IMG/VR virus record: IMGVR_UViG_2545824708_000027
Coordinates: 1 to 10,975 of that record
Length of the DNA: 10,975 nt
Source of the DNA: a virus
Taxonomy: Duplodnaviria > Heunggongvirae > Uroviricota > Caudoviricetes
Strand: one strand, 5' to 3'
Part shown: in pieces, positions 8,963-9,286 of the stretch
Layout of the letters: every line of letters begins with the position of its first letter
Numbering within the stretch: position 1 is the stretch's first letter
Notes under the pieces: model-generated
Seen by the model: the letters and a program-made list of their open reading frames with translations, nothing else
What the model was told of the DNA's origin: nothing
Databases searched by the model: none
Program-made: the position numbers and the translations under genes

Positions 8963-8978
8963 TTGCAGGTTCGATTCC
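8963..8978 (+). other. 16-nt fragment identical to a tRNA T-arm region (TTGCAGGTTCGATTCC), as I recall tRNA-Arg argW; tRNA-derived att-region remnant
   Basis: Contains the canonical T-loop motif GGTTCGATTCC; the flanks do not form a tRNA; lies 20 nt upstream of the torI start. Confidence 0.45.
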
Positions 8979-8997
8979 CTATTCGGAGATAGCACTC

Positions 8998-9198
8998 ATG
9001 CAACACGAACTACAACCTGATTCACTGGTTGATTTGAAATTCATCATGGCTGATACTGGCTTCGGTAAGACCTTCATCTATGACCGGATTAAGTCCGGCG
9101 ACCTGCCAAAAGCCAAAGTTATCCACGGGCGAGCAAGATGGTTATATCGTGACCATTGTGAATTCAAAAATAAGCTATTAAGCCGCGCCAATGGGTAA
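8998..9198 (+). CDS. torI: TorI-type excisionase / recombination directionality factor (AlpA-family winged-helix protein), 66 aa
   Basis: ORF track; translation MQHELQPDSLVDLKFIMADTGFGKTFIYDRIKSGDLPKAKVIHGRARWLYRDHCEFKNKLLSRANG matches my recollection of E. coli KplE1 TorI in sequence and length; AlpA/Xis-type HTH pattern; located at the prophage end next to the att core. Confidence 0.8.
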   Translation: MQHELQPDSLVDLKFIMADTGFGKTFIYDRIKSGDLPKAKVIHGRARWLYRDHCEFKNKLLSRANG

Positions 9199-9214
9199 AA
9201 TAGCGGGTAAAATA
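9193..9214 (+). repeat. Direct repeat GGGTAAAATA x2 (9193-9202 and 9205-9214) overlapping the torI stop; candidate arm-type recombinase or RDF binding sites
   Basis: Two perfect 10-bp copies separated by 2 bp, about 60-80 bp from the att core. Confidence 0.35.
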
Positions 9215-9271
9215 TTTCTCACATCTAAAAAATACCATTCCAATCAATCCCCTGCTGCCTCAAGTAGATGT

Positions 9272-9286
9272 CTGCAGGGGACACCA
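9272..9286 (+). other. Candidate attR core: 15-nt match to the 3' end of tRNA-Arg (CTGCAGGGGACACCA), not part of a complete tRNA gene
   Basis: The upstream 60 nt do not encode the rest of a tRNA; sits inside an inverted repeat CCCCTGC (9249-9255) / GCAGGGG (9274-9280); phage-type genes to the left, host permease to the right. Confidence 0.6.

Follow-up and report, generated by a model that had tools for sequence, protein, structure and literature searches.

The window, meaning the whole stretch of 10,975 nt analysed here, comprises the right-hand end of a lambdoid prophage inserted in argW, followed by host DNA. Genes for a cI-like repressor and for replication are succeeded by a DUF551 gene, orf55, a hairpin and torI, beyond which the host sequence begins (Table 1). 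The orf55 region is ~96% identical in DNA to lambda 29091-29339 and to many lambdoid phages, and its product matched no Pfam family. The left mosaic boundary of the torI module falls just past the hairpin. The product of torI is 100% identical to TorI of E. coli loci, and the stop codon of the gene lies inside the first GGGTAAAATA repeat, the overlap being confined to the last few torI bases. The consensus of these repeats is shared with the P′ arm sites GGGTAAAAA, GGATAAAAT, and TTTTACCC ahead of intS; the arm sites of IntS have a TAAA core (PMC2951348).

Table 1. Features at the right-hand end of the prophage and in the adjoining host DNA (window coordinates).
Feature	Position	Strand	Basis or remark
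Small ORF “orf55”, 55 aa	8773..8940	+	Homolog of a lambda ORF located between ea8.5 and xis; last gene ahead of the torI module
Terminator-like hairpin, AAGCCGCC-TGAT-GGCGGTTT plus T run	8930..8955	+	Terminator scan, fold
TTGCCTGATTTGC (TTGC-N5-TTGC)	8954..8966	+	HK620 record: cII-binding site of the “phage integration” promoter
Piece 1, TTGCAGGTTCGATTCC	8963..8978	+	Equals argW nt 46-61; phage-borne
Remainder of the torI leader	8979..8997	+	Shine-Dalgarno GGAG at 8985-8988
torI, recombination directionality factor (RDF, excisionase), 66 aa	8998..9198	+	Translation; RefSeq annotation; PMC2951348, PMC3509656
Two GGGTAAAATA direct repeats	9193-9202, 9205-9214	+	Taken as IntS arm-type sites, P arm
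attR core region	9264..9286	+	Left half-site, overlap, right half-site; piece 2 = 9272-9286
Host DNA, argW-dsdCXA variable region with sucrose (csc) cluster	9287..10975		Empty site contiguous; annotation of a close relative
cscB	9728-10975	-	LacY_symp Pfam match

Two tRNA strings on either side of torI

The original prediction held that two consecutive pieces of the 3′ half of a tRNA-Arg gene, argW, flank torI. The argW sequence on which it relied proved correct: argW ends in ...GGGCTAATTGCAGGTTCGATTCCTGCAGGGGACACCA both in K-12 (L006:310-384) and in a lysogen (L007) that is ~98.5% identical to the window over 8700-9700, and a published primer, GCTAATTGCAGGTTCGATTCC, agrees with it (PMC3509656). 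Both strings, TTGCAGGTTCGATTCC (piece 1) and CTGCAGGGGACACCA (piece 2), are present where they had been placed, each as a single copy on the + strand of the window. They are indeed consecutive segments rather than duplicates, with a single C (nt 61) common to the two, and torI and the two GGGTAAAATA repeats do stand between them. Piece 1 covers the end of the variable loop, the 5′ strand of the T-stem, the T-loop, and the first 2 nt of the 3′ strand of the T-stem. Chance is excluded as the source of the match, as an exact 16-mer would be expected ~5e-6 times in 2 x 10975 positions, and shuffles with up to three mismatches allowed gave only 0.13 and 0.19 matches. No tRNA gene or cloverleaf was found in the window by ARAGORN, and the strings are therefore fragments; likewise, in 22 related loci the region upstream of torI yielded neither a tRNA nor a pseudo-tRNA. 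This arrangement is already known, in that it belongs to a well-studied module and is unchanged in K-12. On balance, the two strings appear to be two different things, although we hold to this with little more than a lean in its favor.

The attR core and the boundary of the prophage

Piece 2 is fully explained as the crossover core at attR of a prophage of the IntS/TorI type, integrated at the 3′ end of argW, the role that the original prediction had given it. It corresponds to argW nt 61-75 and lies at the prophage-host junction. The KplE1 prophage is bordered by a duplicated 16-nt core, CTGCAGGGGACACCAT (PMC2951348), and the 17-bp att of Kapi1, for which a prophage-free strain and the lysogen were compared, consists of the same core and one flanking base (PMC8787464). 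The K-12 pseudogene annotation pawZ (b4643) is a copy of the attR core, and piece 2 should be annotated in the same manner, that is, as attR. The unoccupied locus was also found: argW and window positions 9287-9413 are contiguous, with 100% identity, in many E. coli, and 1471 genomes cover at least 80% of the rebuilt empty-site query. The base after CCA is G in the host flank, and therefore the identity in this case is 15 nt, not 16. As attL lies outside the window, the evidence for it comes from the near-identical lysogen (98.5% over 8700-9700) and from K-12; in both, argW with the same core is followed by the P′ arm and intS.

In related modules, the core forms the inverted repeat GGTGTC-TGCAGGG-GACACC. 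From this symmetry, we infer a left half-site GTAGATGTC (9264-9272), a 7-bp overlap TGCAGGG (9273-9279), and a right half-site GACACCA (9280-9286). Strand exchange by IntS takes place within piece 2, with TGCAGGG as the putative overlap. The RDF gene torI adjoins the P arm, and the arm-type repeats lie between torI and the core. It had been proposed that the recombination-site region encloses the excisionase gene; in functional terms this is not supported, because recombination in vitro proceeds with a 135-bp attR that begins ~25 bp ahead of the torI stop codon (PMC3509656). The left primer of this attR is equivalent to window positions 9174-9193, so piece 1 was excluded from the substrate; piece 1 is not needed for excision in vitro. 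The torI expression constructs start at CGGAGATAG.

In the GenBank record of CUS-3 (CP000711), it is piece 1 that is annotated as the attL/attR core, and a 16-bp direct repeat does flank that prophage minus torI. That piece 1 is a real excision site is nevertheless extremely improbable, because the left end of CUS-3 has a core, an integrase region, and a P′ arm of the IntS type, and the prophage of K1 strains with a 100% identical right end runs on into torI and a core beside dsdC. A recombination product of the argW T-arm and piece 1 occurred in none of 5426 E. coli genomes. The CUS-3 annotation of piece 1 as an att core is wrong; since piece 1 was called the core, the record was cut at piece 1, with the loss of torI and of the genuine attR. 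Prophage boundaries should not be set by piece 1. Its two database annotations conflict: the HK620 and Sf6 records make it a “pI” promoter, and that of CUS-3 makes it an att core.

Origin and conservation of the piece upstream of torI

Piece 1 is found in the free phage genomes of HK620 and Sf6, where it separates the torI homolog from the gene upstream, and is absent from empty sites; it is phage-borne and not a host-derived flank. The string is identical in K-12 KplE1, HK620, Sf6, and the CUS-3 end, and it lies 19 nt ahead of the torI start codon in the first three and in every other E. coli-type module examined. All of the 80 E. coli-type loci in IMG/VR contain it, with different upstream hairpins joined to the same TTTTTATTRCCTGATTTGCAGGTTCGATTCC...; in 58 haplotypes, varied hairpins are joined to the same TTTTTATTRCCTGATTTGCAGG... 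A pattern scan of viral contigs returned 120 matches, 40 of which precede RDF genes, and the others represent phage tRNA genes or chance.

According to the earlier reading, a longer tRNA homology, that is, one ancestral tRNA 3′ half in attP, was later interrupted by insertion of torI and the P arm. In E. coli, the two pieces abut exactly in tRNA coordinates (nt 46-61 and 61-75), with torI and the P arm in the 293 bp that separate them, as this reading would predict. However, TorI relatives of 60-95% identity gathered from other Enterobacterales do not bear it out. In more than 20 related lineages, the core is directly adjoined on its phage side by a T-loop-like stretch (TTCGATGTA immediately followed by TGCAGGG). 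The piece 1 homologs also vary in span: those of Serratia and Pantoea phages, which read CAGGTTCGATTCCTG and GGTTCGATTCCTG, respectively, overlap the first bases of the core, and the homolog reaches into CCTG in L015, L018, and L193 and comprises the full hairpin GACAGGTTCGATTCCCTGTC in Edwardsiella (L021). In copy number they range from zero to two across lineages, with tandem duplication in L131, L135, L128, and L013. From the T-loop-like flank of the core and from this variation in span and copy number, it follows that the exact abutment is particular to the E. coli lineage. Contiguous pieces (an uninterrupted TTGCAGGTTCGATTCCTGCAGGGGACACCA in attP) were found neither in the 5426 E. coli genomes nor in any locus fetched. 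The split-copy reading is thus already largely refuted, and we regard it as very improbable.

The candidate of a decayed full tRNA copy was likewise rejected, on a by-eye comparison between the tRNA 3′ end and the part of the leader that follows GATTCC, which gave 4-5 matches in 14 positions ungapped and 8-9 in 15 with one gap; a comparison of this kind is confounded by the purine-rich Shine-Dalgarno region.

The conserved part of piece 1 is the block GTTCGATTCC(C), which starts at 8969. It begins sharply at GTTCG, and the sequence to its left is unrelated across many contexts. In 54 of 64 unique leaders, the motif stands 6 nt ahead of GGAG, and the conserved leader as a whole measures ~32 nt (GTTCGATTYCC, 5 nt, GGAGAT.AAACC, ATG), directly upstream of the RDF gene. 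Among E. coli-type modules, piece 1 shows a nucleotide diversity of 0.005, compared with 0.065 for third codon positions of torI and 0.05 for the P arm. Among 18 lineages, pairwise identity is 0.887 for the 12-nt motif and 0.865 for first and second codon positions of torI, but 0.596 for third positions and 0.47 in the 17 nt ahead of the ATG, all of these figures being drawn from short stretches, and the lineages compared having been selected for possession of the motif. GTTCGATTYCC is therefore about as conserved as the first and second codon positions of torI. In this respect piece 1 looks selected. On the other hand, the motif is absent from 26 of 82 unique leaders, for example that of Dryocola (L017), where its absence resembles a clean 25-nt deletion, and it is therefore dispensable in some phages.

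The leader is not confined to torI. In a second RDF family (MRELRDDSL...), which shares 45-48% identity with TorI, the arm repeats at the same place are GGGCATAA and the argW core is unchanged; the leader, GTTCGATTCCCAAxCCGGAGATxAAACC, is likewise the same as that of torI. In a third family, with arm repeats GGGGGTATT, only GGGGACACCA is common with argW and the motif is absent. Relatives aimed at another tRNA were sought, and all three of the RDF families found end in argW sequence.

It was also suggested in the original prediction that piece 1 is a remnant of an earlier integration at the same tRNA, and this is possible. The T-arm of argW forms a natural inverted repeat around a spacer of 7 nt, GCAGG-TTCGATT-CCTGC, and such a T-arm is a classic target of integrases of the T-loop class; Williams is said to have described, in 2002, the use of the T stem-loop as a core site. 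Accordingly, piece 1 might be what is left of an older or alternative att site without present function, such as an old attP core that persisted after the torI-attP-intS module had replaced an earlier integrase region. The ancestral form apparently covered most of the T-arm (CAGGTTCGATTCCTG in L015 and L193; GACAGGTTCGATTCCCTGTC in L021), and piece 1 sits at a mosaic boundary, both of which would be consistent with such a relic. A neutral remnant should decay like its flanks, yet the motif is conserved about as strongly as codon positions 1 and 2 while the flanks are variable, and its distance to the Shine-Dalgarno sequence is fixed. Moreover, a T-arm contiguous with the tRNA 3′ end beside the orf55 region was not found in 5426 E. 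coli genomes. A relic without function is thus a doubtful explanation, though one to be kept in mind, and the same grade applies to the scenario of module replacement. A relic origin as such is compatible with the explanation favored below; the absence of a present function is the only part that competes with it.

Candidate roles of the torI leader element

We lean slightly toward the view that piece 1 is a separate phage-borne copy of the 5′ strand of the argW T-arm and the T-loop, which is neither a recombination site nor one half of a split copy. We infer that it may descend from captured argW DNA and that selection may have preserved it as an element acting in cis to restrict the synthesis of the RDF or to set its timing. 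Modules of this family control excision through expression of the RDF, and the way in which torI is expressed is only partly known; the torI promoter has been termed “non-characterized” in the literature on the module. No tested function for piece 1 was found in the accessible literature on this module.

One candidate for such an element is a cII-dependent pI promoter, in which TTGC-N5-TTGC (8954-8966) would serve as the activator site, followed by the 13-nt spacer AGGTTCGATTCCC and TATTCG as the -10 sequence. Transcription would start ~5 nt before the ATG, so that Int would be made without TorI, as in lambda, and this geometry would be expected to yield a transcript without the Shine-Dalgarno sequence. 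The final four bases of TTGCCTGATTTGC are bases 1-4 of piece 1. The sequencing groups annotated it in GenBank in these terms (“pI” of Sf6 covers L003:2919-2946, and HK620 has the cII-binding site), in lambda the cII box TTGCGTGTAATTGC occupies the corresponding position, between the shared orf55 hairpin and xis, and an Arsenophonus relative (L024) has a lambda-like box, TTGCGTGTAATTG, ahead of its torI homolog. The spacing, however, is N5, whereas the canonical spacing is N6; the first TTGC is polymorphic in E. coli (TTAC in 14 of 51, and also TTTC); and the TTGC repeats are missing from most other lineages that keep GTTCGATTYCC. Furthermore, the conserved part would be the promoter spacer, which is normally free to vary. 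A scan of 8600-9450 for sigma-70 promoters gave nothing at piece 1. A cII promoter is thus an unlikely explanation of the element.

TorI might instead repress its own gene by binding to the motif GTTCG. TorI sites have the cores GTTCG, GATCG, and GTCCG (PMC2951348). The GTTCG at 8969-8973 (+) is the core of five mapped attL TorI sites, in the same orientation, and 12 nt further downstream another pentamer, which reads ATTCG in the window and GTCCG or GTTCG in relatives, covers the Shine-Dalgarno sequence; in addition, the tandem direct copies in some lineages resemble arrays of RDF sites. By contrast, the mapped and inferred TorI sites have C or T after GTTCG, never A, and the three pentamers occur 30 times on the + strand of the window, which is the background level and leaves a single copy with little significance. 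The GTTCGATTCC leader is also kept by second-family RDFs with the P′ arm repeats CATTACC/GTTACC (L279, L285), so the motif does not follow the specificity of the RDF. A TorI operator is quite unlikely.

A third candidate acts at the level of translation: pairing of AUUYCC with GGAGAU and of GGUU with AACC in the leader RNA would hide the Shine-Dalgarno sequence and lower the translation of TorI. In an alignment of 17 lineages, 83.5% of cells are compatible with this pairing, compared with at most 62% for slid registers; the 6-nt spacing to GGAG suits a translation-level role, and the Shine-Dalgarno sequence is often paired in single-sequence folds. Nevertheless, RNAalifold found no consensus structure for the 17 leaders, covariation was not above that of shuffles, the C/T difference in the central pair is uncompensated, and the outer stem is missing in the E. 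coli form. Predicted pairing of the Shine-Dalgarno sequence stood at 0.80 and, once the 11 motif bases had been shuffled, still at 0.71; shuffles that did as well made up a median fraction of 0.375. An RNA hairpin therefore seems distinctly improbable. A 26-codon ORF at 8940-9020, whose ATG overlaps the orf55 stop codon (TGATG), was rejected as a leader peptide; by eye, the start is absent in K-12 and in Citrobacter-type leaders.

Among the specific mechanisms, the leading one, which we put forward tentatively, is that piece 1 mimics the left half-site of attB (B), in the T-loop region of argW. The core-binding domain of the integrase would bind piece 1 and damp the expression of torI, and the same integrase protomer may also hold the arm-type repeats at the 3′ end of torI. 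The motif is the tRNA sequence that abuts the overlap in attB, namely the attB left half-site, and it has TT(C/A)G(A/G)T in common with the core-left (C) half-sites found in relatives; the variants TTAGAT, TTCGGT, TTAGAC, and TTTGAT are common to the motif and the C half-sites. Its distribution points in the same direction, in that the motif is present in the two families with a crossover abutting the T-loop and absent from the family in which identity starts further 3′; the argW identity of this third family is only GGGGACACCA, so its B site would not be the T-loop. Against this mechanism, the motif is far less variable than real C half-sites and keeps the tRNA-like TCC/TTC where C sites typically have GTC/GTA; it thus follows the tRNA and not the optimum of an integrase. 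A lone half-site, moreover, is normally a weak target for an integrase. Of the specific readings, we rank mimicry of the attB half-site first, and a neutral relic of a T-loop-class att site, which is somewhat more doubtful, second. It is tempting to generalize that RDF leaders of argW-targeting modules carry a copy of the attB left half-site, that binding of integrase there represses the RDF, and that this arrangement has been kept across at least two families; from the sequences compared, such a rule is possible but doubtful.

Even so, an element of the torI leader that is common to two RDF families and identical to the T-loop of the target offers a concrete place in which to seek the control of excision. 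If the integrase does bind the motif, this would constitute a simple feedback that has not been described for lambda-type systems, and the level of integrase would be coupled to the decision to integrate or to excise.

Several known systems share parts of this arrangement. The “attL/attR core” of CUS-3 (CP000711) is the same 16-nt string as piece 1, but is treated there as the crossover site. By contrast, pawZ (b4643), the “pseudo argW” at the right end of CPS-53 in K-12, is exactly piece 2, and piece 1 is unannotated in K-12.

At T-loop-class att sites in tRNA genes, integrases cross over in the 7-nt T-loop flanked by the arms of the T-stem. Like these sites, piece 1 and its relatives comprise the 5′ strand of the T-stem, the T-loop, and part of the 3′ strand; unlike them, piece 1 is accompanied by no matching integrase, partner site of identical overlap, or recombination product.

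The pI/cII box of lambda, after which pI of HK620 and Sf6 was named by analogy, resembles the window in its TTGC repeat and in its position directly after the shared orf55 hairpin. The window differs in having N5 instead of N6 and ~20 extra bases, which contain the T-loop motif, before the Shine-Dalgarno sequence. Modules of the window type also differ from lambda in that attP is located between the RDF and int genes.

The closest system is the module of KplE1 (CPS-53), HK620, Sf6, and Kapi1, which has the same RDF-attP-int order, a core of 15-16 nt, the TorI protein, the GGGTAAAAT arm repeats, and piece 1 upstream of torI. In the window, on the other hand, the host flank is csc rather than dsdC, the junction reads CCAG rather than CCAT with an identity of 15 nt, and the upstream prophage genes differ through mosaicism.

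Gene order and reading frames around torI

The genes to the left of torI are listed in the table below. On the plus strand, the run from the replication genes to orf55 leads directly into torI in the window, whereas recombination genes precede torI in a related full prophage (compared locus L005). This gene order (1736-8940) suggests that the prophage is rearranged or defective.

Features to the left of torI and reading frames overlapping the argW-like segments
Feature	Window position	Strand	Remark
cI-like repressor	within 1736-8940	-	
Replication genes (HTH_36 O-like, DnaC-like), DUF1627, DUF977, DUF551 and orf55	to 8940	+	follow the cI-like repressor
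26-codon ORF	8940-9020	+	ATG overlaps the orf55 stop codon (TGATG)
ORF spanning the P arm and the core	9191-9322	+	homologue of HK620 hkaB / Sf6 gene 17

The 26-codon ORF crosses the T-arm-like copy of argW and the torI start, and its own start was not found in the K-12- and Citrobacter-type leaders checked by eye. The ORF that spans the P arm extends past the core and ends within host DNA in the window; therefore, integration alters its C-terminus. This reading frame is unlikely to be a genuine gene.

Attachment sites in related E. coli genomes

The 16-nt T-arm repeat forms both termini of the CUS-3 reference record CP000711 (L001:3245-3260 and L004:1-16); torI and the real attR are therefore missing from the record. 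In K1 strains whose right end is identical to that of CUS-3 (IHE3034, L217:2846-3170), the attR core is CTGCAGGGACACCAT, which has one G fewer than the attL copy, a difference in sequence that could impair excision. The attP junction (orf55-torI-core-P' arm) is present in 13 E. coli genomes (records H83-H88), for example in NZ_CP146940.1 (12.8 kb) and NZ_CP081786.1 (39.4 kb). It is chromosomal in some of these genomes, which suggests tandem lysogens, and lies on small circular records in others, which look like excised phage genomes.

To the right of attR, the host flank (9287-10975) consists of the argW-dsdCXA variable region in its csc (sucrose) form. In the close relative L005, a DUF4942 pseudogene fragment, which is a trace of an earlier island, is annotated between attR and cscB (20797-20886).

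Other RDF families and leaders

A second RDF family (L218-L297, IMG/VR; e.g., L219:1720-2200), with ~45-48% identity to TorI, shares the argW core and the GTTCGATTCC leader with the TorI modules and carries the arm repeats GGGCATAA in place of GGGTAAAA; part of the family has CATTACC/GTTACC instead of GTTCGC as P' arm repeats. A third family, in Serratia and Yersinia (L424:3214-3320 and L425:3217-3320), has GGGGGTATT as arm repeats, and the T-loop motif (GTTCGATTYCC) is absent 5' of the RDF gene in both loci. The identity of its core to argW is limited to GGGGACACCA, which suggests a crossover displaced 3'-ward. Upstream of the Arsenophonus nasoniae torI homologue (L024:2440-2500), the T-loop motif is replaced by TTGCGTGAGATTTGCGTGTAATTG, almost the same sequence as the cII box of lambda pI.
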